A DNA stretch of 63,522 nucleotides from the IMG/VR virus record IMGVR_UViG_3300013132_000051, positions 1-63,522 of that record. One strand, written 5' to 3'. How positions within the stretch are numbered: the first letter of the stretch is position 1; every line of letters starts with the position of its first letter. Below the pieces are notes generated by a model. That model saw only the letters and a list, made by a program, of their open reading frames with translations, ran no database searches and was not told where the DNA came from. Made by a program: the position numbers and the translations under genes. Origin of the DNA: a virus (lineage: Duplodnaviria; Caudoviricetes). Shown here in pieces: positions 2,780 to 42,300 of the stretch.

Positions 2780-3679
2780 ATGAGCTTCGGATGGACAGGA
2801 TTCTTTCGGCAAGGCGCGTGGCGCGAGCTACGCCGGTTCCTCCTGAATCAGAAGCGGGACGCTCTACCCCGTATTCGGGCGATCAACGCTGAGTTGTCCC
2901 GTATCGGGTACGTCCGTATTCTTTATGCGAGGACGGACCCGTCGAACCCTAACTCGCCGATGAGCGAGCGGAGGATCGGCCTGGACGTGTCGCCGGGGAC
3001 GAGCCTAGAAAAGCTCCTCCAGGCGTACATCGCCCAAGGCGGCAACCCGTTCGACATCTCGATGTTCCTGATTCCCGACTCGTTCATCTTCGTCGAGAAT
3101 GAGGAATCTACCTCCCCCGTCTCTGAAGAAATCGACGAGACGGGCGTCGAAGGCGAGCCGATACGCCGAGAGACGGCTCCCTACTCGGGGATCGTTTACC
3201 CGATCTCTGCCGATCCGGTTATCGGCGGGCTCTACACCGGAGGGTGGCTACCGCTGTGGAGGTACCCGCCTCGGAAGTTCGGCAACAACATCACCTACAT
3301 CACCGAGTCGGCGGATCTAGCTCCCGCGACGAGACAGCTCCGGGACTGGGCGAATCGGGACATCCGGGGCCTCCGGAACAACCTAGAGGCCCGGATCATC
3401 AAGCTCTGCGACCTCCGCGAGCAGCTCCTCCTAGAGCGGGATGAGATTCTTCCCCAGGCCGTCGGCGGAGCCACTGACGGGGTTTCGTTCAACCCGGACG
3501 TTTTTGCGGTAACGCACCACACGTCCGGCATCATCCGTCAGATTGACGACGTGTTCTACACGATCGCCGACGGGTTCTACGATTTCGAGAACCCGCGTCA
3601 GTCCCAGCCCAACCCCCCGTACCCCGTCCTGCTCGAGGACGCGCCGACGGGCGAGGAGGCGTGGACCGCGTTCGGATAA
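2780..3679 (+). CDS. hypothetical protein, probably virion-associated
   Basis: 299-aa ORF directly upstream of the baseplate operon; role inferred from context only. Confidence 0.7.
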   Translation: MSFGWTGFFRQGAWRELRRFLLNQKRDALPRIRAINAELSRIGYVRILYARTDPSNPNSPMSERRIGLDVSPGTSLEKLLQAYIAQGGNPFDISMFLIPDSFIFVENEESTSPVSEEIDETGVEGEPIRRETAPYSGIVYPISADPVIGGLYTGGWLPLWRYPPRKFGNNITYITESADLAPATRQLRDWANRDIRGLRNNLEARIIKLCDLREQLLLERDEILPQAVGGATDGVSFNPDVFAVTHHTSGIIRQIDDVFYTIADGFYDFENPRQSQPNPPYPVLLEDAPTGEEAWTAFG

Positions 3680-3731
3680 CCGCTTCCGCGTTCCCTTCTA
3701 TCGCCCCGGAAAGACGGAGCGCGGAATAGGC

Positions 3732-20998: not shown

Positions 20999-21882
20999 TC
21001 CGCGAAGCCCTACTATCTGAGATGGCAGGGCGGGTCGCGGCTCGTCATGAGATCCGCATCGCAGCGAAGCGGGCTTGCTTTTCAATCAACCGCACCGCCT
21101 CGGCCAACGGCCTCCTAGAGCGGTGCCTCGTCGCGATGGCAGAGGGCGCGCTAGTACCGGAGGACGGCTCCCCGGTACGGACGGCGGGGTTCGCCAACCT
21201 CGCCCGACGGCTCAAGCAGATGGCCGTGATGGTCGGGAAGTTCCCGAAGCTGTGGGAGCGCGTCAAGGAGTTCTTGGGCGTCGAGAGTCTCGCCGACCTC
21301 CCCGGTCGCATCACCGAGCTAGCCAAAGAAGGCTACAAAGCCCTCAAGCGCCTCATCGACAAGGCGTTCTCCGTGTGGCCTCTGAAGCTCTACACGCTCC
21401 CGGAGAGCAAGCTCTTTAGCTTGAACGCTCTCCTAGAGAAGATCGCTGACGCGAGCCCCGCGTTCAAGAATTTCCTTACTGATACCGTGAAGCCCCGCGT
21501 AGACCAGTTCGACGCATGGCTAAAGAAGTACCTCCCGGCTATCTCCAAGGTCGTGATGGTCGCGATTTACGTTTGGATCTGGCTCAACGTCGTCGAGTTT
21601 GAGTGGGATCTGAAGGGCATCATCGACGCCGCTACCGGCACGATCTCGCTTTCAGACTTGCTCACGAGCCTACCGGGGTCGATTCTCGGGGCGTTGATGA
21701 ACTCGCTCGGCCTCGGGACGTTCACGCTCCTACCGGCGGCGTATGCCGTGCGGTTGGCGCTCGTTATCTCCCGCCGCTACGTCACTTGGACGGGGAGCGG
21801 GTTCTCGTTCGACGCTGAGAAGCTCCGGGAGGACTTCAAGTTCAGCCCTGCCGTTGAAGAGCTTATCCCCGCGAAAGTTTGA
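20995..21882 (+). CDS. hypothetical helical protein with hydrophobic C-terminal segments
   Basis: GTGA coupling; VVMVAIYVWIWLNVV and ILGALMNSLGLGTFTLLPAAYAV hydrophobic stretches. Confidence 0.7.
   Translation: MIREALLSEMAGRVAARHEIRIAAKRACFSINRTASANGLLERCLVAMAEGALVPEDGSPVRTAGFANLARRLKQMAVMVGKFPKLWERVKEFLGVESLADLPGRITELAKEGYKALKRLIDKAFSVWPLKLYTLPESKLFSLNALLEKIADASPAFKNFLTDTVKPRVDQFDAWLKKYLPAISKVVMVAIYVWIWLNVVEFEWDLKGIIDAATGTISLSDLLTSLPGSILGALMNSLGLGTFTLLPAAYAVRLALVISRRYVTWTGSGFSFDAEKLREDFKFSPAVEELIPAKV
21846..21878 (+). repeat. 33-bp direct repeat, copy 1 (contains late-type motif)
   Basis: CCCTGCCGTTGAAGAGCTTATCCCCGCGAAAGT identical to 23983-24015. Confidence 0.9.
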
Positions 21883-21886
21883 GACT

Positions 21887-23965
21887 ATGGACGAACTAAG
21901 ACTCCAGACGATGCGACTCGCCTATAAGAATCCGTCGCTCCGGTCGCGGTTGATTCCGTTGCTGAAAGCCGCCGCCGAAGAGAGTCTCGTTGACGCTCCC
22001 GACACGGTATCCGCAGGCATCGAGCGCCAGGTCCGGTCGAAGCTCGGTCCGCAGGCTCTGGGCTTGATCAACCTCTATCAACAAGTCCGTCTCATGCACG
22101 ACGGAGCGCCCGGACCCGACGAAGGTCTCGCCCAGGCCTTCCGGACGGAGACAAAACTGTTTGCGCGGTCGATGATGCGAAAGCTCGACGGTCCGGTCGC
22201 CGCTCCCGCTGCTGAGACGCTCCTAAACCAGATTCAGAGCCTCAAGCCCCTCCTCCAGAAAGTCGAGCGGGGTTCCAGTACTGCCGTCTATCGGTTTCTC
22301 GGCCCACGTCTCGCCCAAGCAATCGCGGGCGCTCTCCAGGCCTCCGACATTGGAGTCGCGCTCCGACCTAGCCCGGACCAGGTCAAGTGGCCTATTCTAA
22401 AGATCACGAGCGCACCCGATCCGATCGGCGAGAAGACCTACTTCACTGAGGAAGAGATCGACCGACTGCCGGAAGCGGGTGCGGTAAACCAGCCTGGAAG
22501 CAAAGACAAGTTCGCTCTCAAAGCCCAAGCCGACGAGGCCCACGAGCAACAGCTCGACTGGCTAAACCGGGGCCGGGGTATCGACGCAGCTATCGGGGCT
22601 CAGGTCCTTCGCGGGGACCAGGGAGCTATTCCTGCGGATGACAAGGTCGATAGAACTCCTGATGGCAGATTCCAGACGAAGGACAAAGACGGGAGACCTC
22701 GTACCTTCAACTCCAAGGAGGAAGCTGACTTCTTCGCTGAGGGCGTTGGTAACGAGAAGCGCGCTGAGTATTTCAGCAACCTCCCTGAAGGACCGATTGT
22801 CCTAATCGGACCGAAGAAGGCGATTACGGGACGGGCCCAGGAGAAAGTAGACGCGAAGTACGGCGGGGACTGGTCGAAGCTCAAAGACTTCGTTCGCGCC
22901 TCCATCATCGTAGACCGGATCGACCAACTCGACGACCTGATGAAGAAGCTCCGGGCGTCTGGGCTAAAGCTCGCGGCGAAGCCTGATGACCGCTTCTCCA
23001 AACCGACCGAAGCTGGGTACCGAGACCTGTCGATGAACGTCGTGTACCCGAACGGTCACGTCGGTGAGCTCCAGATTCACCTCAAGCCGATGATCCAGGC
23101 GAAGGAGGGTTTCGGAGGCCACAAGCTCTACGAGAAGACCCGCAAGTTCTCAACCCAGGCTAAGAAAGAGGGTCGTTCGACGGTGACTCTTCAAGAGCAG
23201 ATCCTCATCAATGACCTGAACGACAAGCAGAAACAGCTCTACGGCGCTGCCTGGAGAGAGATCCAGGGCGAAAAGGGCGCTCTCCGGAACTACGTCGAAT
23301 CTGGGGGCATGGGAAAGCTATCTTTCGCCAGCCAGACCGTTCAGAACAAAGTCCAATACTTCCGGTATGACGGCGAGGCCGCTTACTGGGAGCGGGGGAA
23401 GTTCCCTATCGTGATCACCGACCGGGGGGAGCAGGTCGAATACAACCTCAAGAAATTCTTTACCAAAGCGATCAGCCTCACGAAGGATGAGTACGCGAAG
23501 CTCCGAAAGTCCCGCAACGCCAGCTCTTCTGGAGACTCTGACATGACCCTCCGTTCCAAGCTGATTCGTCTCGCCCACGAGAACCCGTCTCTCCGGGGGG
23601 AGATTCTTCCCCTGCTGAAGTCAGCTGCTTCCGGTCTGAGTCCAGAGGAGTTCCGTAACGCTTGGACAGCGTTGGAGAAGCTCGCTGATGAAGCCAGGCT
23701 CCCTAACCAAGTCAAAAGAAGACTCGATAGCTTCCTACACGGGAACCCGCAAATCGTTGAGCTACCTGACGGGCTCGACTCGCTTCTCAAGTACCTCCGA
23801 ATCGAGGTTAGTTGGTCCAGTCAATGGGACCACGCGGTCTTGAGTTGGGTCTGGACCACACCTGACAACAAGCCCAACACTCGGGTCATCGGCGAGATCG
23901 GAAATCCCAGCCCTGGTCAATGGTACTGGAAGGTCGCCTCCGGCGGGGGATCTCGGTACGTCTGA
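21887..23965 (+). CDS. leader-peptide polyprotein with RelA/SpoT-like (small alarmone synthetase-type) nucleotidyltransferase domain
   Basis: GPKK..GRAQEK, KLKDFVRASI, DRF.KPTEAGYRDL, GELQI and H.LYE motifs; leader at the N-terminus (ATG 21887) and again in frame at 23543. Confidence 0.75.
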   Translation: MDELRLQTMRLAYKNPSLRSRLIPLLKAAAEESLVDAPDTVSAGIERQVRSKLGPQALGLINLYQQVRLMHDGAPGPDEGLAQAFRTETKLFARSMMRKLDGPVAAPAAETLLNQIQSLKPLLQKVERGSSTAVYRFLGPRLAQAIAGALQASDIGVALRPSPDQVKWPILKITSAPDPIGEKTYFTEEEIDRLPEAGAVNQPGSKDKFALKAQADEAHEQQLDWLNRGRGIDAAIGAQVLRGDQGAIPADDKVDRTPDGRFQTKDKDGRPRTFNSKEEADFFAEGVGNEKRAEYFSNLPEGPIVLIGPKKAITGRAQEKVDAKYGGDWSKLKDFVRASIIVDRIDQLDDLMKKLRASGLKLAAKPDDRFSKPTEAGYRDLSMNVVYPNGHVGELQIHLKPMIQAKEGFGGHKLYEKTRKFSTQAKKEGRSTVTLQEQILINDLNDKQKQLYGAAWREIQGEKGALRNYVESGGMGKLSFASQTVQNKVQYFRYDGEAAYWERGKFPIVITDRGEQVEYNLKKFFTKAISLTKDEYAKLRKSRNASSSGDSDMTLRSKLIRLAHENPSLRGEILPLLKSAASGLSPEEFRNAWTALEKLADEARLPNQVKRRLDSFLHGNPQIVELPDGLDSLLKYLRIEVSWSSQWDHAVLSWVWTTPDNKPNTRVIGEIGNPSPGQWYWKVASGGGSRYV

Positions 23966-24031: not shown

Positions 24032-24466
24032 ATGACCCTCCGTTCCAATCTCATCCGCCTCGCCCACGCGAACCCGTCTCTCCGGAAAGACTTGCTCCCC
24101 CTTCTGAAGTCGGCGGGTAAGGGTCCGAACCAGAAAGACATCGAGTACGCGATTGTCGCGTTCGACGGGCTTTTCCACAGCGCGAAGATTCCGGGTGGTC
24201 TAGAAACTCGGTGGTTAGGAAACGGGAAGGACGTTGTCAACGGCGGGATTTTCGATCTCCCGGTTCCTAGAGGGTTTGAGTCCCTATTCAAGAGCATCTC
24301 AGTCGAAGTCCGATGGGTAAATCCGGAGTACGCCCGCGTGAGTTGGAAATACACCCACCCGAATGGCGGTCACAACGGATCCGAGATCGGCGAAATCGGG
24401 CGAGATCCGAAAAACGGAAAGTGGTACTGGAAGAACAACGCGCACGGGGGGCAAAGTTACGTTTGA
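24032..24466 (+). CDS. leader-peptide protein, paralog of the 23543-23965 domain
   Basis: MTLRSNLIRLAHANPSLRKDLLPLLKSA; shares EV.W, SW..T.P, IGEIG, WYWK and terminal GG.SYV/SRYV; SD AGGAG. Confidence 0.85.
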   Translation: MTLRSNLIRLAHANPSLRKDLLPLLKSAGKGPNQKDIEYAIVAFDGLFHSAKIPGGLETRWLGNGKDVVNGGIFDLPVPRGFESLFKSISVEVRWVNPEYARVSWKYTHPNGGHNGSEIGEIGRDPKNGKWYWKNNAHGGQSYV

Positions 24467-24469
24467 CCG

Positions 24470-25705
24470 TTACTCGCGGACCGCGTAGACGCGCCGCTCA
24501 GTAGGCTCCTTCGCGCCGCCGACCCAGAGGGGCGGGATCCACTTGAGGGTCCTGCCCCTTTCGCTTGCGACGATGACCTCACCCTCCCGCTTTCGGGGGC
24601 CGACGAGGAACGTGTGCCAATGGCCCCGGCGAACGTGCCCGGAGACCGTGCGACCGGACGACTCGGTGAGGTCATGCTCGCCGCCGACCTCTTGCTCGAT
24701 GGTCGGGCCGACCCACACGAGGCGGCACTTGGTGAGGTCATCGAGCTTCCGCTTGGCGAGGCGAGCATCCTTCTTGTTGGGGTTCTTGAAGCCCGCGATC
24801 TTCTTTCGGAGGCGGGCGCGCTCGCTCTCGGTGGTTTCTGGGTCAGACAGGTCCGCGCCCGTCGAGTTCATGTAGAGGACCGTGTTGACGGCGATCCGCA
24901 TGAGCTTCCGGGCCGTCTGACGCACGCGCTCGATGCGGTCCCTCGGGGAATTATCTAGCCCCATGCCGATGTCACTCGCCTCGGAAGCTCGGTTCGCCAA
25001 GAGCTTGTCGAGAGCCTTGTCGAGATTGATGCGCCGGAGCGCGTCCGGGTCTGCCGCGTGAACGGCCTCTAGCTCGTTCGCTACAGCGGCACTCTCGCTC
25101 TCGATGGTCGTGATGGTCTGGCGGACGTACTTGGGGTCGAGCGACTTCTCAAACGACTGTTCAAACGTCGTCTCAGAGTGGTGGTCGAGGTCGATCCTGA
25201 ACCAAAACGTCGCGTCGTCCGTAGGGACGATGCTCTTCTCATTTGCCTCGGCCCAAGCGAGGACGCTGAGGGCGCTGACATCGCGGTGGGTCTCCATGAC
25301 GACGTACATCCCGACGACGCGGTGCCACCCCGTCCGAGTGCCACCCCATAGTACGAGGTCTTCGCTCTCAGGCGTCGCGAGGTAGAAGCACGGATACGGG
25401 AGCCGCACCATGTCGAGCGGGACGTTGGCGAGGCTCGTGTTGGCGAAGGCCGCTTGCATCCGGGGGCCGACGCAGATGACTTGCTGGTGGTGAAGCTCAT
25501 ACAAGAGCATCGCCCGCGTCATCGTGTACGTCGTGCCGAAGAACTCGGCCATGTTCGCCATGCCGCATTCCTCGCCGGTCTCGTCGCGGATGATGGCGAG
25601 CTTGCGCTCCGGCGGGAACGCGAGGATCTGCCGGACCATGTCCATGTTCGGCGCGGTCCGCAGGAAATCGAAGTGGACCTTGGGCGGGGGGAGCTTGGAG
25701 GTCAT
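24470..25705 (-). CDS. hypothetical phage protein with C-terminal HxRRGHW motif
   Basis: 411 aa; GHVRRGHWH...KWIPPLWVG tail recurrent in phage proteins of unknown function. Confidence 0.8.
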   Translation of the reverse strand: MTSKLPPPKVHFDFLRTAPNMDMVRQILAFPPERKLAIIRDETGEECGMANMAEFFGTTYTMTRAMLLYELHHQQVICVGPRMQAAFANTSLANVPLDMVRLPYPCFYLATPESEDLVLWGGTRTGWHRVVGMYVVMETHRDVSALSVLAWAEANEKSIVPTDDATFWFRIDLDHHSETTFEQSFEKSLDPKYVRQTITTIESESAAVANELEAVHAADPDALRRINLDKALDKLLANRASEASDIGMGLDNSPRDRIERVRQTARKLMRIAVNTVLYMNSTGADLSDPETTESERARLRKKIAGFKNPNKKDARLAKRKLDDLTKCRLVWVGPTIEQEVGGEHDLTESSGRTVSGHVRRGHWHTFLVGPRKREGEVIVASERGRTLKWIPPLWVGGAKEPTERRVYAVRE

Positions 25706-25755
25706 ACCCCTAGCTTACGCTTTCCGCGTTCTTTCCTATCGAAAGTAGAGAGGGT
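25706..25755. promoter_or_regulatory. 50-bp divergent promoter region
   Basis: GCGTAA on the minus strand (25715-25720) 9 nt from ATG 25705; CGTT-N5-CTATC on the plus strand (25727-25740). Confidence 0.55.
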
Positions 25756-26367
25756 ATGACCCCCGGCACGCACAAGCTCCCGCCGCTCCCCTACGAGTAC
25801 AACGCGCTAGAGCCGTTCCTCAGCGAGAAGCTGATGCGGCTTCATCACGACAAGCACCACGCCGCTTACGTCGAGGGGCTCAACGAGGCCGAGCTAGCTC
25901 TCGCGGCGGCGCGGGACTCGGGCGACACCCTGCTCGTGCCCTATTGGGAGTCGCGTCGGGCGTTCAACGAGGGCGGGCACGTCCTGCACTCGATCTTCTG
26001 GCGGGGCATGACCCCGGTCGGAGGCGGGGGCGAGCCGGGGGGCCTCCTCGGGGCGCTCATCGAGCGCGACTTCGGCGGCTACGAGAAGTTCCGCGCTGAG
26101 TTCACCGCCGCCGCGAAGGGCGTCGAGGGCTCCGGGTGGGCGATGCTCTTCTGGAAGCGGGGGATGTCGGGCGACCACCTAGAGATCGCCGCCGTCCTCA
26201 ACCACGAGAACCAAGCCCTGTGGCAAGGCGAGGTCGTGCTCGTCTGCGACGTATGGGAACACGCCTACTATCTGGACTACCTGAACGAGCGGGCCGAGTG
26301 GGTGGACGTGTTCCTCGACAACCTAGTTGATTGGGAACAGGCCGCTTCCCGTCTCCTCCGCCGCTAG
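25756..26367 (+). CDS. sod: Fe/Mn superoxide dismutase
   Basis: LPPLPYEYNALEP, HHDKHHAAYV, FNEGGH.LHSIFW, GSGW and DVWEHAYY signature; all four metal ligands present. Confidence 0.97.
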   Translation: MTPGTHKLPPLPYEYNALEPFLSEKLMRLHHDKHHAAYVEGLNEAELALAAARDSGDTLLVPYWESRRAFNEGGHVLHSIFWRGMTPVGGGGEPGGLLGALIERDFGGYEKFRAEFTAAAKGVEGSGWAMLFWKRGMSGDHLEIAAVLNHENQALWQGEVVLVCDVWEHAYYLDYLNERAEWVDVFLDNLVDWEQAASRLLRR

Positions 26368-26472
26368 TACGGGTATCCCGTCAAAGTAACGAGCCGGTGG
26401 GCGGTTTCTGTTGCTTCCCGTCCTTCACGCCCGACCGAAGCAGAGCAGCGTCAGGTCGAGCGACGGCTCTAT

Positions 26473-27123
26473 TTAGAATCTGCTGCTTCTAGGGTATCCC
26501 AGATACCGTAGAGACCTAACGTAGTCATCGTATTGAGCATCTTCATATGCTGTTTCTTTCATTATGTCAATATACTCATTGATAGACTTATGACGATCCT
26601 CGAAGGGGAAATCCTTAAAGATTATTGGGTTGGGAACGTCAACAAATACATTAAACGCCGTCTGATCTAGTTCGTCTGCGGCGTCTCTGGCACTCACGCC
26701 GGTTTTCTCAGCGGCCTCAATGTATTTGAAAATGAGACTCTTGATGCGGGGGGCTTCCATCATAAAATTGATAGTGCCACTATTCATCCTCACGTTGAAA
26801 GGGTCTTTCCTCTTTTCATAGAGATACTGCATATATTCCCCGCTAATCCCCAACTCCCCGTCTTGGGTACGCGGGAGGTCATCAATTTCAGAATTTTCAA
26901 GAATCTCTAGCGACAAAGCTACCAAGTAGGGTTCCCAATCAGTCTTCCGAACCTCACCAAGGATTTGATTGAACAGGCGGTTTGCCTCTGGGTTATCGAG
27001 AAGCCACTTGTGAGGCTTACCGGCAACCCGAGAGGCGCTCTCCTTGAGCAGCGGCAAGAGGGCCGGACGGAGGTCGGGGCGGGAGTGGGCGAGCCGGATG
27101 ATGCGGGACCGGAGGTCGGACAT
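26473..27123 (-). CDS. leader-peptide protein with AT-rich cargo region
   Basis: ATG 27123 gives MSDLRSRIIRLAHSRPDLRPALLPLLKESASRVA; downstream coding region is markedly AT-rich. Confidence 0.8.
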   Translation of the reverse strand: MSDLRSRIIRLAHSRPDLRPALLPLLKESASRVAGKPHKWLLDNPEANRLFNQILGEVRKTDWEPYLVALSLEILENSEIDDLPRTQDGELGISGEYMQYLYEKRKDPFNVRMNSGTINFMMEAPRIKSLIFKYIEAAEKTGVSARDAADELDQTAFNVFVDVPNPIIFKDFPFEDRHKSINEYIDIMKETAYEDAQYDDYVRSLRYLGYPRSSRF

Positions 27124-27164
27124 AACTTTGCCTTTCGATAAGGAAGATAACCCGCCCCTCGGAG

Positions 27165-27410
27165 CTACTTCAGCGGGCCGTTGCGAAGCCCGTCGCACTC
27201 GCACTCGCGTAGCACGATGTCCACGCCTCGCCCGGTCGCTAGGCACCGGGGGCACGGGACGTAATCGTACCTGTCCCGTGCCAACGCGAACCGCCAATAC
27301 ACCCGCTTCACGGCGAACGGTAGCGCCTGAGCCCCGATGAACCACACGCGGCAACACGCCGGGATCCCCGAGTGCTTCCCGCAAACCCAATCGTAGCGGG
27401 CGTACCTCAA
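27165..27410 (-). CDS. small Cys-rich hypothetical protein
   Basis: TTGA coupling with the MTase stop; GIPACC...YVPCPRC. Confidence 0.6.
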   Translation of the reverse strand: MRYARYDWVCGKHSGIPACCRVWFIGAQALPFAVKRVYWRFALARDRYDYVPCPRCLATGRGVDIVLRECECDGLRNGPLK

Positions 27411-28012
27411 AACAAGTCGAGGACCGTCGGCTCCTCGTCTCCTAGCTGGTTGCCGAAGCGGTCCCAACCCTCGGCGGGCGCTCCGCGAGCGAACATCTCT
27501 AGTCTCCGCACTGGACCGTAGAGGCGTCCGATGCGGGAGCGGACCTCAACCGGCTTCGCGCTGTGTTCCCCGCGAGGCGAGAACACCGTCTGCTGAACAG
27601 TCTCGTCTAATAGGGGCAGGGGCCTCCCCCTCGCCTCAGTCGAACCCGCGATGACTAGCTCGACTAGCGGCTTCACCACCGAAGGGCGCACGCCTTGGGC
27701 TCCGATGGGGGTTCCATCGCTCCGAGTCTTGACCCAGACGAAGGGCACCCCTCGGAAGTGGAACCCCCACGCCCGCAGTAGGTCGATAGCCGCGTCGAGG
27801 CGGGGGCACGTCGCCCACATGAAGACGACGGCTCGGTCGGCGCACTTGCGGCGGACGGGCAACGCCATCAACGCCGCGTCGTCCATGAGCGAGTAGTGCT
27901 TGCCCGCCGCCGCCATCTTGTCCTCGGCCCCGTAATAGAGCCACGGCGGATCCGTGTAGACGATCTGATATGAGGCGTCCGGCACCGCGCTGAAGTCGGC
28001 GTAGTCGGTCAC
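27407..28012 (-). CDS. MT-A70 family N6-adenine methyltransferase
   Basis: DPPW catalytic motif, FMWAT, FVWVK, HSAKP, LEMFAR. Confidence 0.92.
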   Translation of the reverse strand: MTDYADFSAVPDASYQIVYTDPPWLYYGAEDKMAAAGKHYSLMDDAALMALPVRRKCADRAVVFMWATCPRLDAAIDLLRAWGFHFRGVPFVWVKTRSDGTPIGAQGVRPSVVKPLVELVIAGSTEARGRPLPLLDETVQQTVFSPRGEHSAKPVEVRSRIGRLYGPVRRLEMFARGAPAEGWDRFGNQLGDEEPTVLDLF

Positions 28013-28017
28013 GGAGT

Positions 28018-28650
28018 TCAGCGCATCTGGTGGGGTGCTCGTCGCCCTAGAGCAGCCCGCTTGCCGAGACCGTCAGCGGGGAAGCCGAGCATCGCCCCCC
28101 ACGAGTAGAACATCTGCTCCCAAGTACCACGGCTTACCCGTTGGGCGAGCAGGCCCGATGCTACTTCTAGCTGGGGGCGCGAGGGCTTCGGTAGAGAGCC
28201 GCCCCAATCCGTGTACCCGAAGCGGTCATCGAAGAAGTGCTGCTTCTCGCACGCGAGCGCGAGGAGGTCATACACCCGCACCTCGGCAGTACGCGGATCC
28301 TCGACCCCCATCGCCCGGAGGAACGCCGCTTGGAACTTGTCCTCGTAAGTCTGCCACGCTGGTCCGACGACGCGCCGCACGGGAGAGATCACGTCCCCGA
28401 CGTAGGCTTCGTGCCCGTCGTGCATGAACACGGCCCGGACGGTATCGCGGGGCTGGCCGTCAGCGGTAGCGAGGCTCGCCGCGAGAATCGAATGAGCGGC
28501 GACCGACCAATCGACTGCGCCGTTGTATCGGGCTTGCCGTGAGAGGTGGGTCGCTACGTCCCGCAACGAGAACACCCCCGGATCGAACTCCGGGGCGTCC
28601 GGGTCGAGGACGACCTTCCGGCCCGAAGCCGTGAGCGTCCAAGGCGTCAA
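28018..28650 (-). CDS. HD-domain phosphohydrolase (YfbR/5'-deoxynucleotidase-like)
   Basis: T.SGR, LSRQARYNG, SVAAHS, HDGHEAYVGD..SP, D..AL..E; TTGA coupling at 28647-28650. Confidence 0.85.
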   Translation of the reverse strand: MTPWTLTASGRKVVLDPDAPEFDPGVFSLRDVATHLSRQARYNGAVDWSVAAHSILAASLATADGQPRDTVRAVFMHDGHEAYVGDVISPVRRVVGPAWQTYEDKFQAAFLRAMGVEDPRTAEVRVYDLLALACEKQHFFDDRFGYTDWGGSLPKPSRPQLEVASGLLAQRVSRGTWEQMFYSWGAMLGFPADGLGKRAALGRRAPHQMR

Positions 28651-28850
28651 GCTCGACCCGCCATCATCTTGCCGAGCGCCGTCTCGCCCTCGTCGGTACA
28701 CGAGAACATCGACGGGTCCGCCGGATTGTGCGCGAGCAAACCACGCTTCACGAGCCGGTGGGCGAGCTTCTGGTCCTCGCCGAGCCACTCGGTGGGGCGC
28801 TTCTTCGGGGAGAGCATCAGGATACCAATCTCGACGGGCTTCAGGCTCAC
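28647..28850 (-). CDS. hypothetical protein (possible winged-helix fragment)
   Basis: 67 aa in a coupled operon; RLVKRGLL...TDEG. Confidence 0.6.
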   Translation of the reverse strand: MSLKPVEIGILMLSPKKRPTEWLGEDQKLAHRLVKRGLLAHNPADPSMFSCTDEGETALGKMMAGRA

Positions 28851-28857
28851 GGTCTAT

Positions 28858-29130
28858 TCACTCCTTCGGTTTTCTAGGGGGTCGCGGGAATCTCGATGTC
28901 GGGTATCCCAACGATGCTGGTGGGAGAGCGAGTACGGGAGCTTTTGGCTCTACAGGGGCTTCTGGGGAGCCATGCACGGGGCACTCGGCGTTGTGGACGT
29001 AGCCGTACTTCTCGGCGTTGCCCCAATACCCGCGCCCGTAGTGGTTGTCCATCACCGGACAGGCGCAACCCTCGCGCTGAGCCTCCGGGCTTCCGGGTCG
29101 CAGACCGTACCGGAGGGGGTGCTCACTCAT
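28858..29130 (-). CDS. small Cys/His hypothetical protein
   Basis: GSPEA..GCACPVMDN.YGRG...CPVH. Confidence 0.7.
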   Translation of the reverse strand: MSEHPLRYGLRPGSPEAQREGCACPVMDNHYGRGYWGNAEKYGYVHNAECPVHGSPEAPVEPKAPVLALPPASLGYPTSRFPRPPRKPKE

Positions 29131-29621: not shown

Positions 29622-30395
29622 ATGTCTGACCTTCGTTCCAATCTGATTCGCGTAGCGAGCACCCTTCCGGCGGGCGACCCCGGTCGGAGCGACATCCTCC
29701 ACGTCATTCGCGAGAACGACATTCGCCTCGCCTTCGGCAAGGCGGCGGCGTCCAAGCTCCCGACCCGCCTCGTCGCGGGCTACGACGGCTTCACGGACCA
29801 GATCCGCGAGCTGGCCGACACCGAAGCGAACGTCAAGCGCCTTCAGGCCGAGATCGACGCGCTCACAGGCGACCTCTCCAAGAAGCTGAAAGACGCCGAG
29901 AAGGGCTACAAGGACGCCGTCGAGGCGATCAAGGACGCCTACAAGGAGAACCTCTCGGCTCAGGGCAACGTCATCATCGAGCGCAAGACGAAGCTCGTTG
30001 AGGCGCAGGCCAAGCTCAAGGTCGTCGGCGTCAAGGGCACCCTCAACTCGATCCAAGAGGATATGCTCGCCGCCGTCACCGAGAAGTACGGCGCGGAAGT
30101 CGCCGCCTTCATCAAGGCGACGCAAGACGCCCTCCAAGAGCAACACCAAACGATGCGTATCTCGCTCGACGGCTTCGTGCTGGAGGCGCGCGAGGCGGCG
30201 GACAAGACGGCGGCGAGCAAGACCGCCCTCAGCTTCAACATCGTCGGCGTTCTCGCGAAGTTCCGCGACTACATCAAGAAGGGCTGGTCGAAGATCGTCG
30301 AGGTCGCGAAGGCGGCGACGGACGTGATCCTGGGCCGCTCGGCGAAGGTCGAGAAGGCGCACACCGAGTTCTTGAAGGCGCTCGGCTCCGTTTGA
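29622..30395 (+). CDS. coiled-coil protein with variant leader, probably an abundant virion component
   Basis: MSDLRSNLIRVA...; strong SD AGGAG; very biased codons; own terminator; several K/R-x-A motifs. Confidence 0.85.
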   Translation: MSDLRSNLIRVASTLPAGDPGRSDILHVIRENDIRLAFGKAAASKLPTRLVAGYDGFTDQIRELADTEANVKRLQAEIDALTGDLSKKLKDAEKGYKDAVEAIKDAYKENLSAQGNVIIERKTKLVEAQAKLKVVGVKGTLNSIQEDMLAAVTEKYGAEVAAFIKATQDALQEQHQTMRISLDGFVLEAREAADKTAASKTALSFNIVGVLAKFRDYIKKGWSKIVEVAKAATDVILGRSAKVEKAHTEFLKALGSV

Positions 30396-33082: not shown

Positions 33083-33321
33083 TACCGGCCTCCGCCTCTC
33101 TTCAGGCGAGCGATCTGCTCGTGAAGCTCCTGGATTTGCTTCTGGTCCTGGGCGACCTGGGCCTGGAGAAGCTCTGATACCTTCAGGAACATCTCGCGTT
33201 GTTTCTTCAGGACGGGGAGATTCGTGAGGTCGGCCTTGCGCCCCTGTACCCAAGCGGGGTTGTCCGGGTCGAGGCCGAGAGCCCGGAGCTTCGCTTTCGC
33301 TTCTTCTAGCGTGTCGGTCAT
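33082..33321 (-). CDS. small coiled-coil protein
   Basis: coupled at both ends; heptad-like Q/E/L-rich C-terminal half. Confidence 0.75.
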   Translation of the reverse strand: MTDTLEEAKAKLRALGLDPDNPAWVQGRKADLTNLPVLKKQREMFLKVSELLQAQVAQDQKQIQELHEQIARLKRGGGR

Positions 33322-36300
33322 CGGACTTGGGTTCCCTTCACCGCCGTGAGGAGGCGCTTTTGCTCAACGATGCGCCGGGATAGCTCCCGGTCAAACCGCC
33401 GGATAGCCTCTAGAGTACCCGAGACTCGGTCGGCACGGAGCGTAAGCCACGCCCACCGGGAGTCTCGGAGCTTGTCGCTTTGGTTGAGAACTTCCTCGAT
33501 GCGGTCGGGGAGCACGGGGCGTCCCTCGTCGTTTGCGAAGTCTGCATACGGAGGTGTTAGCGGGGGAGAGTACGGGGGCGTGAGCGTGTCGAGCCGGAAG
33601 TCGAGCCCCCAGAACCGCCGGTCGAGGATCGACAAGGCATCGCTCGTGTTCGTGTACGGGCTCACGTCTACTAGGCCCGCGATAGTCGCGATGTAGGCGT
33701 CGAACAGCACCCCGAGCCCCAAGAGCGGATCGGTCGGGTCGCCGAGGTCGGTGATATGCCGGTCCCTTTGGAACACGAAGTAGGTGCCCGACTTCCCCGA
33801 TTCAAAGAGCGTCCTGAGTTCGTCCATCCACGAGAGCAACCTCTCCCGCGTAGACAGGATTAGCTCCAACGCCTCGTCACTCAAGAAAGGCGAGGGCCGA
33901 ATCACTCGGTAGGAGAACGGAGCGACGCTGAACCAGTTGCCCCGGAACGAGTTGGACCCGTTGCAAAACGCCGTCGGTCGGAGGTCGATCTGACCTTCCA
34001 AGCCGTTGCCCGCCCCCGACAAGCTAGACCCGTGAACCGTCGGGTAGACCGCGTAGGAGGCGTCGTACACGACATCCGGGTCGGGCCTCATGCTCGCGAG
34101 CGCACCGCCGAGGGGTTCTACTTCTAGCACGGCGACGTTGACCGTCTTGATGCGGTAGAAGCCCCGGTTGTCATCGAGTTGCGACGGCCCGCCCGGATTG
34201 TACGGAGCGCCCGGACCCCGGTCGATAACGCTTTGGTCCCCGAAGGGTTGTCGCCCGAACTCCGAGGGGGTCGGCGAACCCGTTGGGCCACGGAGCTTCC
34301 CGGCGGGGTCGATGACAAGAAGATCCCCGACTTGCACGCCTTCCTTCGCGAAGTTGGTCGAGGGGACGGTGTCCGTGAGCTTGTTGATGCTCTGGTCGTA
34401 GGCGACCTGAAGATTGGGATCCGAGACGTAATCTACCTTGCCGCCTTGCTGCGTAACGAGGTTCGCTTTCCGGTCGAGAACCCGAACGTCGGTCGCGAGG
34501 TCGAGTAGCTCCTCGCACGATTGCTCGTGGGGAACCGGCGCTTTGCGGAGGTACACCTCAAAGCGCGTACCGGGAACGACCGCCGCGAGAGCCTTGCGCG
34601 AGAGCCGGAGCGTGAACCCGTCGGTTTCGACCGAGAGCACGTCCATCTCCGCGAAGGGCAGGCCGTCCGCTCCCAAGAACCTCACCGTGTCGCCGCCGTT
34701 CACGTTCAAGAGCGGCAGGGTGAAGTCCCCAAGCTGAGTCGCCGTACCGCCGGGGAAGGGCGAGGGGAACCGCGCCGTGTCTACGGGCTCCGCGACGAGA
34801 AGGCTCGCCGACCCCGAAGTCGTGAAGCTCGCGACGATGCCCCGCCGGATCTCATAGACGAACCTCAGCGCCCGGAGCGAGTCGGCGGCAATCCCAAGTA
34901 GGTCGTGGAACCGTCGGATGCGCCGGACTTCGATCTGGGCTAGCTCCAAGAAACTCACGCCCGGACCCGGAAGCGTAGTCGCGTAGCTCGTGTAGCTGCG
35001 AGCCCCGATCTCGTTAGCCGCGAGCGAGTTGGCCGCGTCTACTACGTTGACCCGAGGAGCCCCGAGGTTGTTGCCCGACACCGGGAACGAGGGCTCCACG
35101 AACAGGCCCGCTTGCGCGTGATATTGAAGGTCGAACGAATCTCCGGGGAACAAGCACGCGGGACCGCCGCCGTGTAGCGCCGCCCACGGGAATCCCGAGA
35201 GGTCGAGCACGCCCGGAATCTCCCGGTACACGGGAGCCTCCAACGGGAGGAAGCTCGTCGATGGCTGAATCGTCTTCTGGTAGACGCCGAGTTCACCGGG
35301 AGCCGGGAGAACCCCGACGATAGTCCCGAGGCCCGCGTCGAACGTCGAGGGGGCTCCGCCGTTGTAGCTGGCGCTCACCGCCCGGAATCCGAAGTAGTAG
35401 CGGTTGGCTAGAGGGACGAACGGGTCGGGGGCCGTCACTCCCGGCAAGTTGGGAGGCACGCCCACCCCCGACGGAGCTACGGGCACCGCGACCATGCCCG
35501 AGATTTTCTTCCCCACGGTCGCTGAGGCGACGAAAGCCGCGAGGGAGATCGCACCCCCGATCCCGTCTTGGAAGCCGGAGAGGGTGAGGAACCTGTTGTT
35601 GGGGCCGTCGAGCGAGGCGTAAGCCGCCGACACGGCGCTCCCCGCGACGGTTACGTCTGACTCGTTCAGCAGGACATAGACCCGCCCCGAGGCCGGGAAC
35701 GCGAACGGCGCTACTACGGGAGCGCCCGTCACGTCGCTCACCGGGGCGACCGGCAAGAGGCTAGACGCCTCCAGATATACGCCGCCGGGGTCTACTTCGA
35801 TAAGCGTCGGGAACTCGAAATCCAACCACGCTCCCGCCGAACCGACCGAGGCCGTGAGGTCAAGCCGGTGGCCCGGAGGGGTAGCCGGAGTCGCTTCGAC
35901 CGCCGCCCGAACGAGATAGGTGCCGACCTTGCCGCTGGAGATGTCCGTGCCCGGAGGAGCGATGGCCGGATCGACTTGACCCCGGATAACGGCGATGTCT
36001 CCGGGTTGAATCTCTGCGACGCCTCCGGTGAAGGGTGATCCCGCCACGACGAAGTAGTTGTCTTGGATGAACTGATACTCGCCCGCTCCCGGAGTCTGAG
36101 AAACGAAAGCGAACCCGTTGAAAATCGGGCCGGTTTCGCTTTGACGGGAGCTAGCCGCTGCTGAGAAGGTGATGCCCGTCGCCTCAATCGGTACGTTGCC
36201 ACGGCCCTCAAAGCCCGACACCCGGATCGCGCCCAGACCCCCCGGCGAGGGTGCGGGCGAGAACGTCCCTACGCCGTTTAGTGAGGGGGCGATCCAAGAG

Positions 36301-39300
36301 CGCGCCGGGAACGTGAACGGCAACCCCGCATTGATCGCAGCGTTCGCATTGAACGTAACCCCGACCGAGATGGGAGCCGGATTGTAGACGGTAGCCGCAT
36401 GACTGATGATAAACAGTCCGCACTCCATCAACGCGCCGGGAGCGCCCGCCGGATGCGTGAACCCCCGAGGAAGCGCTGACCGGAAATCAATGTGGTCGCG
36501 CCAAGTAAGCCGGTCCACGTCGATGGACGCCGTGTAGCCGCCGTCCACGAGGGCGCTCACGGCAAAGTCATGGAACCCCGGAGTCTCCGTCACGCCGGGA
36601 GCCGGGATCACCGACCCATATGGGGTGAAGTCAAACCACGGCGCGGCGGTAACGACCACCACCCGATCCGTCAGAAGGTAGAACCCGCTAGCGTTCACCG
36701 CCACGGGAGGTCCGCCAATATCCACGGTAAACACGCCCGCGAGGATCGACGTGCCCGGACCCGACCCGCCCCCGGTCTTGTCGATCACGGTCGAGAACGG
36801 GTAGGTGCCCGTCGCCTTGTCGATGAGCGAGAAGGCGAACGCGGTGCCCTTGCCTGCCCACCCGACTACATCGTTCCAACCGCCGACCGGAGCCGGAAGC
36901 ACACCGCCGCCCGCGCCGTCGTCGAAGACGATGTTGCCCGCCGGAATCGACGAGAGGATGAACTCGGTCGTGACGACCGGACCGACGACTGTTTCCCGAA
37001 CGACGACGCCGCTCGCGTAAGCGGGGTAGTCCACCCACGCTTGAGCGTTCAAGATGGCGTAGTCAATGCGCGTGTTCTCGCTCATGGGCGAGGCGAACCG
37101 AGGGGGCTCGATCTGACTGAGGGGAGCGCCCGGAGCGAGCAGCCCGCCGACCGTGTGGATGCCGGTCGATCCCGCCGGGAATCCCGCCGGACCGGGAGTA
37201 CCCGTGCCCTCTTGGATGAACACGAGGTCGAACGGCGCGAGGTCGCCTACGCCCGCGTGACCCGGAGGCGGGGGGTACGCGCCTGACGAGGTAGCCCGAA
37301 GCAAGTCCTCGCTCGTCAAGAGCGCCGACGGGTCAATGGACACCTTCACTCCGCCGTCCGCGCCGAGCGTCTCGTCCGGGTAAACCGCTTCCGTGACGTA
37401 AGCGGGAGCGACCCCCGGAGGAGTTGCCGGAGGAGGGTCCGGGCTATCCGAACGGGTGAGGTCGATGAGCGCCGCCGCTGCCGTTCCGAGAAGCTCTAGC
37501 TCCGAGACGGGCGACCCGTAGTAGGGGAGCGAGTAGTCGCCCGAGTCGAGGCGGGTACCGCCGTCGAGGGCGGGGATCTTCACCGGGAGCCGGTCGCCGT
37601 TTTGGAAGCTGACCCGAGCCTCTAGCGTCGAAAGCGGGGCGGGGGGGCGTTGGCCGGTGGTCTCTTTCAAGCCAAAGAGCGTCGGGTCATCGAACGACGG
37701 AAGCGTCGCGTCGATTAGCTCGCCGGTACGCGAGTTGAAGTTGAGGTCGGTGCCCGTCCGGTACTCCGGGAGCGCCGCCGAGAGCGCCCCTACCTCTGAG
37801 ATAGTCGGCGGGTCCGACACGACGAAGTTCTGACCTGTCCGAGGCACCACAAAGACGGTATCGCCCCGTTGAGGGTCGATGGGCGTACCCGATGCCGGAG
37901 CCGAGAGCGCGACCAACCGGGAGGGGTTGGCGATGGGAGCGCCCGTCTCGTCCGCGAGCGTGATGAGGCACCCGCTCAAAACCGAGTTGACGAACACCCC
38001 GCCGTAGCGGGTCACCGGAGGGATGCCTACCGGAAAGGAGATACCCGAATCTCCGAGTTGGGTGAAGCTCCCGTCGGGTACTCCGAGCGCGAGTTGGTCA
38101 CCTACTCCGAACGGGGGCGTGTGAAGCTCCGGGTCGCCGGTCGCGAGGTCGTTGAGCCCCGTAGGCGTTGGCGTGAGGCTCTGGGAAGCAAGCTGCGAAA
38201 TGTCCGGCAATCCCGTGTTTGACAACAGCGGGAAGTCCGCGAGGGGCAAGGGCGTCGCGATGAAGCACGGCAATCCCGCGCTCGCCGGATCTACGTCGGG
38301 GAAGCCCGTAGGAGAGTAGGCCCACACCCTCGCCCGAGCGAGCCGGTCCCGAGCCGCTACGCCGAGGACGTTCTGGACCGTCCCGAGGACGGGATTCTCC
38401 AACGTGCCGATGGCCGTGCCCGTTGTAGAGCGGACCGAGAACGGGAACCCGTAGAGGAACCCGAGCGGGTCGAAGCCGAGCTTGCCCGCCGAGTATACAC
38501 CGGGAGCCCCCGTCGCCTCATCGAAGTCGAGGCCCGGAGCCGTCGTCGTAAACGCCGTCGTGCGCTCCGGGAACACCCGCGAGTACGGGTTGGCTTGACT
38601 CAGGTCCGCGTAGTTGCCGAAGGCCCGGACCTTGAACCAAATGAAGCCCGCGAGCGTGCGTTCGACGCGCCCCCGCGACACGAGCACGACATCGTCGAGG
38701 TCGTTCTGGATAAGCGTCGCCTGAAAATCCATCAACCTACCGAACGAAGCCGAGTCTTGGACGGGGCCTTGCGGTCGCCCGTTCCCGTCGAGCACCGTTT
38801 GGCGGGGGCTGAGAATCGGATCCGTGCGAAGGAGCCGGATGACCGGGAGCCCGCGCCGAGCCGCATCGAACGCCCCGAACCACAAGATACGGGGATTGAT
38901 CGCGCCCGTGATCTCGTCCTCGTAGCCGGGAGGGGTCCAAGGATCCCGCTTTCCGAACCGGAGGCGGATCTTGCCGTCGCGCTCGCCGATGAGTTGGCCG
39001 TTGAAGGTCTCTTCGATCTGCTCAAAGGCCGAGACAACCGCGTTGTAGAACCCGAGGAACGCCCGCGCTACACGGTCGCGGTCCACGAGGTTCATGCGCT
39101 CTGATACTAGGCCGACCCGTCCCTTGGAGGAGGCGTCCTTGTTAGCGCCCGAGGAGATCGTCGGACCGAAGGAGGGCTCCTGCGCCGTCGCCGCCTTCTG
39201 AAGCTCTAGGGAGACTTCCCCGGCGAACGCCTGGAACGGAACCGCCCGAGCGTAGAACGCATCCGGCGACTCGAAAGTGTAGGTCGCCTGGAGGATGCCC

Positions 39301-42300
39301 CCGGCCCGACCGTTCTTGGAAGAGGGGGCTTCTAGGTAGCCGAAACTCGCTGCCGCCCGAGGGTACTGGACCTGACCCCGGTACGCGAAGGGCGCAATCG
39401 ACACCGTGTCGGTCCGGTAGAACTCTAGGCTCTGGAGCGAGGAGATCCCTGACTGACGGGGCTGTAGGAACGAGATACTCCCGTTTGAGGAGTTGAGGTT
39501 GTAGTCGGCCCCCGGCGCGAGAACCCGACCAGGAAGCTCGTTCCCTGAAGAGTCCTTCTCGCCGTAGAAAACGACCTCCACGCCCTCTTCCGGGAGGTAC
39601 TTGCCCGTGCCGACGAAGGCGGTCGCGCCGTCCGGGTAGACGGGGCGGACGCTGATTCGGACCGCGCTATTCGGCAGCGACGCCGACCAGGAGAACTTCG
39701 TCGGGAAGGGGGATCCGAGCGTGAGGGTCGTGACCCGACCGTCGCTGGATAGATCTGCTTTTACGATCAGGAACGGGTACCCGAGCAGCTCGATGAGATG
39801 GCCCGCGACTGCGTACTCGGTCAGGTCGCCCTCAAACTTGATCTCGATCTGATTAGCGACTACGGGCTCAAACCGAGGCGTCGAGGCAAGCCCGAACGCC
39901 GTTGTCATCTCGACAAAGAACCCCCCGTCTACCGGCCCCGATACTGGCGTAGGCGCGGGGCCGAACGGGTCGATTACTGAGACGACAGCCCGATCCGTCA
40001 ACAAGGACAGCGCGTTCGCCCCCGTGTCGAGCGACCCCGCCGTAAACCGAGGCGCAGGGAACACCGTCACGATGGTCGCGTCCTGAGCGGCATCGTAGGC
40101 GAACGCCCGGAGGTACGTCACGAACGCCCCAAGCCGGAACAACCTACCGACTTCTAGGTCGGCGCTCCTGTCGCCCTCCAAAGCAAACTGCGTAGCCCCG
40201 GCATCGATCCGAAGCGGCGGTCGCCACACCGGAGGGATACTCGCCGTGTACGCCGTCTCGCCACCGAACGCCTCGTAGACTGCGTAGCTGATCGTGACCT
40301 TCGCGGTACTGGGGACCTGCCCGACGAAGCTGATCTGATTCGTCGAGAAGTCCACCGCGCACGTCGGCGGAACCCCGTAAGTGTGCTGGAAGGCGTCCTC
40401 GTAAACGACGGGGCTGACGAGCTGGTCTACCGTGCGGCCTGTCGGGTTGAACGAGTAGACCTGGGACGAGACGCGGGTAGCTACCTCTGCCCGAACGTAA
40501 ACCGGGAGGAACTCCCGGACCCGAACGGGTTGGCCCGCCGAGTCGAGGTAAAGCTCGCCCGTATTCGGCACCGCCCGGAAGTAGACCGCCTCGACTAGTT
40601 GGCCTTCGCGAACGGGATTCGCGATGAACGTGAACGCCCCGAGCACGGGGTTGACCGCCATGTCGGTCGTACCCTCGCAAGAAAGCTGCTCGACGTAGTA
40701 GACGGGCTCCCCGGCGTAGGTCGTGAGGTCTGCCTGTGCCAAATAGACCGAGCCCGTGTTGGGATCGATCTCAGCTTCGCCCGAGGCGAGACTCGCCGGA
40801 GGGAGCCCCTTCTCGACGTAGGTGACGCTCGACCCACCGAGGTTCGCGAACACCGAGCTTCCGAACCGGAGCAGCCCCGGCGTCAGGGTCGTCCCGTCGA
40901 GGTACTCGACGTTGGTTCCGGGGTCCGGCGAGAACGCCGCAACCGGCAAGAGGTCTACGCCGTTCGTGAACTCGACCGTGCCGACGAGCACCGAGAACGA
41001 ACCCGTCGTGAACCGCGCCCCCGCCGAAGGCACCGCGAGCACGTCATTGGCGAGGCCCCCGAGGACGCTCGACCCGAGCACCGTAAGCGGAAGGTCCGCC
41101 CCCGTCTGGTTGAACCTCGCGAAGATGGGCCGACCGCGCTCGATGCTCTTGGCCGAGTCGGCGGGAGCGAGCGTACCCCCGGCGACACCGAGCTTCGTGA
41201 GTACCCGGATCTCAAACGGCTCGACGGGCAACGGGTTGAACGTCTCGTAGACGACATCCGCAACGACCGCCGGATTGATCGTATCCGGGGCTACCCCCTC
41301 GCGCACGAGGTAGCTTTGGACTTGGCCCCCGTCGCCCGCCGGGAAGTCCGGGCTGACCTGAACCTGGGTCGGCGAAATCGCCTTCTCGATTCGGTAGTAG
41401 CCCGCCGCGTCGCCCTTGAGAATCTGGAGGACGTACCCCGGCGTGACCGAGGCGAAGGGCGCACTAGAGTCCGTAAGGGTATCCGACCCCGCCGAGAACG
41501 TGCCCCGGTACCCGAGGAAGCGGACGGGATTGACCCGCTCGATGACGAAGGCTTCGCCGGTCGCTCCGCCGTTCGCTAGGTAGAGCCCGTCGCCTGGATC
41601 TTCGTAGACGAACGGCCCGCCCCGCGTCGAAATCCGGAAGTACCCCCCGAGCGGAGCCAGGAACGTCTCCTCGTAGACGCCGCTCGCCCCGAGGTTGATC
41701 GACGCGAGGGGCGACTCGACGATGCCCTGGAAGTTGCGAGAGCCGAGCCAAGCGAACTTGCTCTGCTCAAACAGGTACCGGACTTCTTTCCAGGGATTCA
41801 GGTTCTTCCTGAACGTCGGGGAGACGCCCGGAGCACCCGCCGACGACAACGCAAAGAACAATCCCTCGTCGTAGCCCGCAAGGTCTTCCCGAGGCGGGAA
41901 GTCCAGAAACTGAAACGGCGTCTCAGAGACGCTGTCCGTGAGTACCTGATCCTCCAGACGGTAAGTATCCCGGTAGTCGGGAACGTCCTGGCTCGCGTCG
42001 AGGTTGCGGGGCGAGCGGTAGAAGCCGAACTCCCCGCCGTAGTCCGGGAGCCAGTTCACGTCTGACGATGAGGTATCCCCCGGAGGCGAAGCGAGCCATC
42101 CCGGAAGGAACCCGAGCGCGCGGCTCCCGGAAGGCGTCGAGAAGCCGATTGCGACCGAACCCGTAACCGAGTCGTCGTCTGCGATTACCACGCGCCCGGA
42201 GAGCACATAGGCGCTGCCCGGAGCCGCCGCTGAGGTGATCGCCGCGTCGAGGCTCGCCGCTACGTCTACTGCCGTGTAGGTGCCCGCCCCGAGCGACGAG

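Follow-up and report, generated by a model that had tools for sequence, protein, structure and literature searches.

The virus-class record IMGVR_UViG_3300013132_000051 is a single contig of 63,522 bases, and the whole of it (the window) was analyzed around one gene on the minus strand, which encodes a protein of 216 amino acids (aa). This gene begins with a G+C-rich stretch that recurs as a tag in other genes of the window and continues into an AT-rich body. An initial annotation had described it as a recently acquired foreign gene that was grafted in frame onto a resident promoter and leader. The parts of the locus are given below, where GC denotes G+C content, HMM a hidden Markov model and ORF an open reading frame; X4 and X6 are two of the sequencing runs whose contigs were compared with the window.

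26473-27123, minus strand: the studied gene, 216 aa, N-terminus MSDLRSRIIRLAHSRPDLRPALLPLLKESASRVA
27022-27123, minus strand: tag and linker, codons 1-34 (MSDLRSRIIRLAHSRPDLRPALLPLLKESASRVA), GC-rich like the genome; tag HMM score 58.5
26920-27021, minus strand: proximal body, codons 35-68, already AT-shifted and conserved in close relatives
26476-26919, minus strand: distal body, codons 69-216, the most AT-rich part, hypervariable among near-identical relatives
26473-26475, minus strand: stop codon TAA, with a GC change point at 26467 just beyond
26368-26472, no strand: 3' spacer of 105 nucleotides (nt) between a superoxide dismutase (SOD) gene and the studied gene, GC 0.61 (normal); unaligned in X6, where the alignment ends at 26361
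27124-27164, minus strand: upstream spacer between the studied gene and the preceding co-directional ORF (27165-27467), conserved in X4

The composition break falls at the tag/cargo boundary, suggesting two joined pieces with separate histories. We read the studied gene, with confidence that is evenly balanced, as an accessory ("cargo") gene that became a mosaic in two steps and belongs to a large phage with a contractile tail. The part of the initial proposal that gave tag and body separate histories was supported, but the part that called for a recent foreign capture was not.

The G+C counts reported initially were exact: 46/60 letters at 27061-27120 in the leader, and 19/60 and 26/60 at 26521-26580 and 26581-26640 in the cargo. 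In a sliding-window analysis, the minimum of all 540-nt windows was located at 26470-27009 (GC 0.444, z -6.45), the next lowest value being 0.554 and the GC of the whole window 0.641. A three-segment maximum-likelihood fit to 26250-27400 placed change points at 27019 and 26467 and gave segment GC values of 0.667, 0.446 and 0.615. The first change point (support at 2 units of log-likelihood, lnL: 26966-27033) corresponds to about codon 35, the end of the tag and linker, and agrees with the earlier placement of the switch near the peptide LLKESASRVA (about 27000-27040), which is encoded at 27022-27051. The second (support 26450-26486) lies just beyond the stop codon. The body of the gene is a compositional island with sharp boundaries, well outside anything expected by chance. 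Specifically, GC and GC at third codon positions (GC3) were 0.716 and 0.91 in codons 1-34, 0.50 and 0.56 in codons 35-68, and 0.441 and 0.50 in codons 69-216, while the 47 coding-like ORFs of the window had a mean GC3 of 0.786 and a minimum of 0.69. The gene was indeed the most AT-rich of the window, being the lowest-GC ORF among 52 greedily chosen ones, even when it was taken as an over-long frame of 305 aa (26476-27390).

The tag-minus-body difference was then calculated for 85 tagged genes from 58 sources, with a tag score of at least 35 and a body of at least 60 aa (30 of 115 tag hits were dropped by these cut-offs). It was 0.027 +/- 0.048 for GC and -0.025 +/- 0.108 for GC3. The studied gene showed the maximum in both (0.25 and 0.45, respectively), about 5 standard deviations out in each case, and was the sole gene of the 85 with such a step. 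The composition step therefore does not generally come with the tag. A milder tendency was seen when tagged genes were taken together. Of the 52 ORFs, the four with the lowest GC (24032-24463, 21743-23962, 2172-2759 and 26476-27390) all bear a tag, and the tagged ORFs of the window, with the studied gene left out (n = 4), had a GC of 0.59 versus 0.648 for the untagged ones (n = 47; Mann-Whitney p = 0.003); the greedy choice of ORFs left out the degenerate-tag gene at 29622. Over the 85 tagged genes, body minus locus GC was -0.023 +/- 0.036. This generally low GC of tagged genes would be expected if cargo turns over faster than the backbone.

The tag follows the profile M-S-D-L-R-S-x-[LIV]-I-R-L-A-H-x-x-P-x-L-R-x-x-L-L-P-L-L-K, which has seven matches in the window (one of them degenerate), on bodies that are unrelated. 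Besides the studied gene, the matches are as follows:

1420-2334, plus strand: tagged gene, 304 aa, sharing only the tag with the studied gene; tag score 58.9
2331-2762, plus strand: tagged gene, 143 aa, unrelated body; tag score 63.9
21887-23965, plus strand: frame of 692 aa with two tags (aa 2-29 and 552-580), found with the tag profile
24032-24466, plus strand: tagged gene, 144 aa, unrelated body; tag score 62.8
29622-30395, plus strand: degenerate-tag gene; tag score 15.9, only MSDLRSNLIRVAS matches

The last of these genes begins with MSDLRSNLIRVAS and lacks the second half of the tag, and may carry a decayed tag. In the uninterrupted 692-aa frame, the two tags flank a weak RelA/SpoT-like nucleotidyltransferase region (E 6e-4, below the Pfam cut-off), and a tagged protein with a similar weak RelA_SpoT match was found in another large record (L069:1886-3511).

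The tag is about 27 aa long, net basic and predicted to form a helix-turn-helix. In the AlphaFold2 (AF2) model, which was built from a six-row alignment, helices at residues 2-14 and 16-26 are separated by a turn (block predicted local distance difference test, pLDDT, 71-81); the protein outside the tag was poorly modelled (mean pLDDT 56). No covering model was present in Pfam, PHROG or NCBIfam, and core-motif and topical searches of the full-text literature returned no description of the tag. A single metagenome scan, which picked up tag patterns only, yielded 57 tag loci, making 115 tag hits with the window, and IMG/VR contained nine tag loci, the longest contig having 265,895 bases. Four of these IMG/VR records, all partial and 133-266 kb long (G001-G004, behind L060, L061, L062 and L067), carry 10, 15, 5 and 9 copies at a CheckV completeness of 59, 39, 56 and 25%, respectively, which suggests that their genomes are very large, of several hundred kb. 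Among 185,579 species genomes, the tag occurred once, on a 7.7-kb contig of a metagenome-assembled genome, from which nothing firm about a host follows.

Most copies of the tag are N-terminal, but others are C-terminal or internal, and some proteins have one at each end, so the tag need not act as a leader at the N-terminus. Extreme C-terminal or both-ends tags were observed in L005:1831-2979, L038:667-1227, L046:783-1745 and P0012. Tag GC3 follows locus GC over a locus range of 0.39-0.72, with values of 0.25-0.31 in L021/L025. When 77 + 12 tagged proteins were scanned against Pfam and 28 against PHROGs, most bodies proved to be orphans. The domains recognized were WGR (2), DUF5710 (1), beta-solenoid/hexapeptide repeats (3), DUF7007 (1) and the weak RelA/SpoT match (2); further matches were to phrog_2859, with a ParB-like part, and to several PHROGs without assigned function. 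The tag is a portable module, placed at the start or end of dozens of unrelated bodies.

The upstream DNA of the six tagged window genes was not conserved and showed no common promoter in an alignment, and the tag copies of these genes differ at many silent sites, indicating that the tag is conserved at the protein level. No promoter-like site was found upstream of the studied gene (27124-27164); only two such sites occur within 25600-27600, and both fall in the AT-rich body, whose composition makes matches by chance likely. The tag DNA of the studied gene is closest to that of L023 (identity 0.82), and its identity to the other tags of the window is at most about 0.72. Neither the resident promoter nor the resident leader that had been proposed was recognizable in these comparisons. 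Gene conversion from a resident tag was considered and rejected, as no window tag was among the 15 best DNA matches.

With the studied protein (P0001) as query, a search of 5.8 billion clusters yielded five tagged relatives, of which four are full-length at 52-56% identity (P0002-P0005) and one is distant (P0006); P0007-P0012 share only the tag with P0001. Full-length homologs that include the leader thus exist. P0002-P0005 all come from metagenome contigs of 0.9-4 kb, and all five members of the small family have the same linker, RVAGKPH, between tag and body. The body alone (residues 35-216) was compared by phmmer with 1.84 billion representative proteins and retrieved P0002 only, and a body-only profile returned the same five tagged proteins from 5300 candidates. 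The body had no match in Pfam, PHROGs or NCBIfam, including toxin families; its best sequence-profile match in the PDB had an E-value of 0.72, and the ESM Atlas gave no usable feature match, with structural template modelling (TM) scores of 0.31 or lower throughout. The whole protein matched none of 50,697 GenBank phage records. The 182 codons of the body thus probably specify an all-alpha domain without known relatives outside the family, and their composition would suit a genome with a GC of roughly 40-50%.

These searches bear on the idea that an untagged gene from a low-GC organism was recently fused in frame behind the resident promoter and leader and became a new tagged cargo. Such a capture would account for a sharp composition step exactly at the tag/cargo boundary, and it accords with a tag that is portable over unrelated bodies and with the low GC of tagged genes as a class. 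An event in the common ancestor of the five-member family would also be compatible with the data. However, no untagged homolog of the body was found among the 1.84 billion representatives or in the profile search of 5.8 billion clusters, and 5/5 relatives carry both tag and linker. The missing promoter-like site, the unconserved upstream DNA and a tag that is not a DNA copy of any other resident tag likewise speak against a capture. We consider it quite improbable.

The age of the junction was examined in related phages. Runs containing this phage carry the labels lake water or freshwater metagenome. Contigs of four runs from four studies (X2, X3, X4 and X6) were aligned to 24500-29000; X2 and X3, both from lake water, share their year with the possible source run and perhaps also a campaign, so their independence is uncertain, and X4 and X6 are from later studies. 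The tag/body junction was bridged by contigs of 4/4 runs. Two contigs cross 27019 with zero differences (X2 record 5, 26571-27062; X3 record 12, 26814-27062), and two cross it at about 95% identity (X4 record 21, 26920-27145, 11 differences; X6 record 27, 26920-27124, 10 differences). The 3' boundary was bridged by X2 record 4 (26284-26534, 0 differences). Moreover, X4 record 21, which extends to 27145, and X4 record 22, which spans 27118-27327, cover the conserved upstream spacer.

An assembly chimera, in which reads of two phages were joined through the conserved tag, had to be considered at this point, because a repeated and conserved tag (seven window matches) could mislead an assembler. 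The copies of the tag are, however, at most about 0.82 identical in DNA, and the identical protein is recorded on three contigs from two sources. Together with the bridging contigs in all four runs, this excludes a misassembly of the junction at the level of contigs, and we regard a chimera as extremely improbable.

Codons 35-68 are about 95% identical in X4 and X6 and must therefore be AT-shifted there too, which implies that the tag/body junction predates the split of these phages. The join is thus old and common to the relatives, so that a fresh capture of a foreign gene, and with it the label "recently acquired", does not hold on this comparison. One X4 contig behaves differently. Its match on the tag side ends at 27014 and gives way to unrelated sequence of 255 nt or more (12 of the first 30 letters are G/C). 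This contig carries either a different cargo that follows a similar tag or a further allele with its break at the GC change point.

A second breakpoint was found inside the body. At an 80% threshold, the alignments of X4 and X6 both end exactly at 26920, the last base of codon 68 (2/2 diverged relatives). Beyond the gene, X6 record 27 matches again at 25680-26361, ending at the SOD stop, with 15 differences and one gap in 682 nt. Between 26361 and 26920, X6 has 525 nt versus 558 nt in the window at less than 80% identity, and only a 39-nt island (26690-26728), which encodes part of the conserved YIEAAEKTGVSA stretch, can be aligned. X6 carries a homologous but diverged allele between the same flanks. 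By this comparison, the 3' spacer and the last two thirds of the gene have, since the split, either been exchanged or diverged much faster. The protein family gave a similar pattern: the identity of P0001 to P0002-P0005 was 88-94% in residues 1-34, 56-91% in residues 35-68 (91% for P0003), 22-36% in residues 69-123, 54-68% in residues 124-160 and 17-25% in residues 161-216.

The gene might also be native, with no transfer involved. Its body would then have become AT-rich through fast evolution, under weak or diversifying selection and AT-biased mutation, or through selection for AT-richness (for expression level or regulator binding), and its tag would have stayed GC-rich by constraint. Consistent with this, GC falls with conservation from the tag through codons 35-68 to the C-terminus, the other tagged bodies are mildly GC-poor, all bodies of the family are rich in F, Y, M, I, N and K, and no donor was found. 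On the other hand, GC3 drops from 0.91 in the tag to 0.56 in the next 34, well-conserved codons, which protein constraint does not explain. Since the step is at silent sites within well-conserved codons, simple drift and effects of protein composition are disfavored, and a local AT mutation bias fails to explain the step because the synonymous sites of the tag are GC-rich. Additionally, divergence jumps from 2-5% to more than 20% at fixed coordinates in two relatives, resembling a replacement, and such a step is seen in 1/85 tagged genes. A native origin without transfer is unlikely, though less so than a recent capture.

Targeted hypermutation, by a diversity-generating retroelement or a deaminase, could in principle have lowered the GC of the body and raised its divergence, and the hypervariability of codons 69-216 among close relatives would suit it. 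Against it, tblastn found no paralogue of the body in the window, and no template-like repeat longer than 15 nt was present in this 63.5-kb fragment (best second match 15 nt), unlike the near-identical template repeat of a retroelement target. Moreover, the AT-shifted codons 35-68 are about 95% conserved in the relatives, and the variable stretch includes a length change (525 versus 558 nt) and a non-coding spacer. This mechanism is very improbable.

The two-step mosaic would have arisen as follows. The first 34 codons would be the portable two-helix tag of the lineage, with the composition of the surrounding genome. In a first step, an AT-rich cargo segment would have been joined at the tag/linker boundary before the split from the relatives of about 95% identity. 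The probable source of this segment is a phage of lower GC within the same tag-bearing gene pool, and the segment may already have been part of this tagged family. In a second step, codons 69-216 and the 3' spacer would later have been replaced among those relatives, the breakpoints lying at 26920 and about 26361. Since tag-bearing phages at 0.39-0.56 GC exist, an exchange among them is more economical than capture of an untagged cellular gene. We infer the direction and source of the transfer, as well as recombination instead of local drift. An extension of this scheme, which we put forward tentatively and hold to be doubtful, is that joining occurs preferentially where the two-helix tag ends. 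Large and huge aquatic phages that differ widely in base composition (locus GC 0.39-0.72) would trade cargo domains there, and the tag would be a universal adaptor for a common, rapidly changing pool of accessory or effector proteins. If this were true, the gene would be a compositional snapshot of a cargo swap, the phage counterpart of tip exchange in polymorphic toxins and part of an undescribed protein-addressing system.

Several points weigh against the mosaic scheme. The searches gave no donor: the body is missing from all 57 tag loci, from five large records that bear the tag and from IMG/VR, which was searched with a protein query and a body-only alignment. The composition of the body was read from the window's allele alone, P0002-P0005 having been compared as proteins. 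The bodies of the P0001 family have F/Y/M/I/N/K fractions of 0.24-0.35 versus 0.16-0.20 in three other cargos, so that part of the low GC at first and second codon positions (GC1 and GC2) could reflect protein composition. GC declines along the gene roughly in parallel with conservation, which fast evolution in situ could also produce. Furthermore, homologous crossover between high-GC and low-GC phages would not be easy, because their tags differ too much at the DNA level (best tag-to-tag identity 0.82). With a single allele available as DNA, no donor, this amino-acid bias and a GC that tracks conservation, evolution in situ was kept as an unlikely alternative and capture as a still less likely one.

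Taken alone, the step in composition is a case of phage mosaicism and says nothing of the function of the tag. As in ordinary mosaicism, similarity and composition change sharply between neighboring segments of related phages; unlike it, the breakpoints lie within one small gene, one of them at the end of a portable tag. The gene also differs from a recently acquired island, since the locus is not empty in the close relatives X4 and X6 and no homolog was found in any lineage that could plausibly have been the donor. Polymorphic toxin loci (Rhs, CdiA) undergo displacement of their C-terminal "tips", and a conserved native N-terminal part is combined with a horizontally exchanged C-terminal part of lower GC. 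The studied gene resembles these loci in its conserved N-terminal part, fixed boundary and variable, lower-GC C-terminal part. It differs in that its body matches no toxin family, its conserved part is a 34-residue tag and not a large delivery domain, and no ORF, hence no downstream immunity-like gene, is present in the 105-nt spacer before the convergent SOD gene.

The tag may be a peptide for docking or addressing, through which diverse accessory proteins reach a phage assembly, most likely the virion, a possibility that we rate somewhat below even. In favor of an address to the virion or its assembly are the many copies per genome, the unrelated accessory bodies and some of the neighbors, as tagged genes lie beside terminase and portal genes (L053), the gene of a protein with a head-decoration-like domain (L028) and baseplate genes (the window). 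On this view, the fast turnover of cargo would stem from an arms race between host and phage. Other observations argue the opposite way. No head, scaffold, protease or tail family was recognized among the scanned tagged proteins and no receptor was found, leaving virion loading without direct support; no tagged structural protein is known from these scans, no clearly conserved cleavage motif was seen, and the tag also occurs at C-terminal and internal positions.

The closest parallels are two capsid-directed signals. The capsid targeting sequence (CTS) of phage T4 is about 10 residues long and is cleaved off by the prohead protease. The tag described here is longer (about 27 aa), can be C-terminal, internal or present twice per protein, and has no clearly conserved protease-type site at its end, where LLPLLK is followed by E, T, S, A or Q. 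Among the 115 tag hits, LLPLL is continued in various ways (KE, KT, KS, KA, RQ, VAD, AS, TG and others), some subtypes having no K; in the studied gene, L-K-E follows the second tag helix. No protease gene was found in the family scans of the window. The likeness to the T4 internal proteins (IPI, IPII, IPIII and Alt) lies in one short N-terminal peptide on unrelated, fast-changing accessory proteins of a large myovirus: the CTS is shared by otherwise highly diverse internal defence proteins and has been used for loading foreign proteins into phage particles (PMC3012670). In phage P1, an N-terminal peptide of DarB of about 30 residues is sufficient to direct a heterologous reporter into the capsid (PMC9024508). 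This signal is similar in length to the tag. It differs in being known from one protein of a staged Dar system, while the tag occurs on 5-15 or more genes per genome.

If the mosaic reading is correct, the studied gene provides direct sequence evidence that tag and cargo travel separately, and its value lies in the evidence for cargo exchange at the boundary of an undescribed, widespread phage tag. The tags would then mark a variable arsenal of uncultured large phages. They would also offer a handle to predict virion-delivered proteins and to load foreign proteins into particles, as with the T4 CTS (PMC3012670).

The remaining content of the window concerns the phage itself. The identified genes with a bearing on its type and on the flank of the studied gene are the following:

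3543-4850: sheath-initiator-like baseplate protein, family scan
4847-8275: Baseplate_J, family scan
25756-26367, plus strand: complete Fe/Mn SOD, Sod_Fe_N and Sod_Fe_C, E 1e-26 to 1e-30

Because of these baseplate genes and the gene content, the window is taken to be part of a large contractile-tailed phage. Other products are two DNA methyltransferases, an ATP-dependent ligase, a GIY-YIG nuclease and a protein resembling a deoxynucleoside monophosphate (dNMP) phosphatase. Very large ORFs of the window (1844, 1115, 1047, 932 and 3652 aa) had no family match; for those of 3652 aa (33318-44276, minus strand) and 1844 aa (8272-13806, plus strand), the threshold in Pfam and PHROG was E <= 0.001. 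A neighboring gene of 411 aa had no relative in IMG/VR. The studied gene is the final gene of a co-directional run from 28788 to 26473 and is convergent with the SOD gene, to which many contigs of other organisms aligned in the compared runs.

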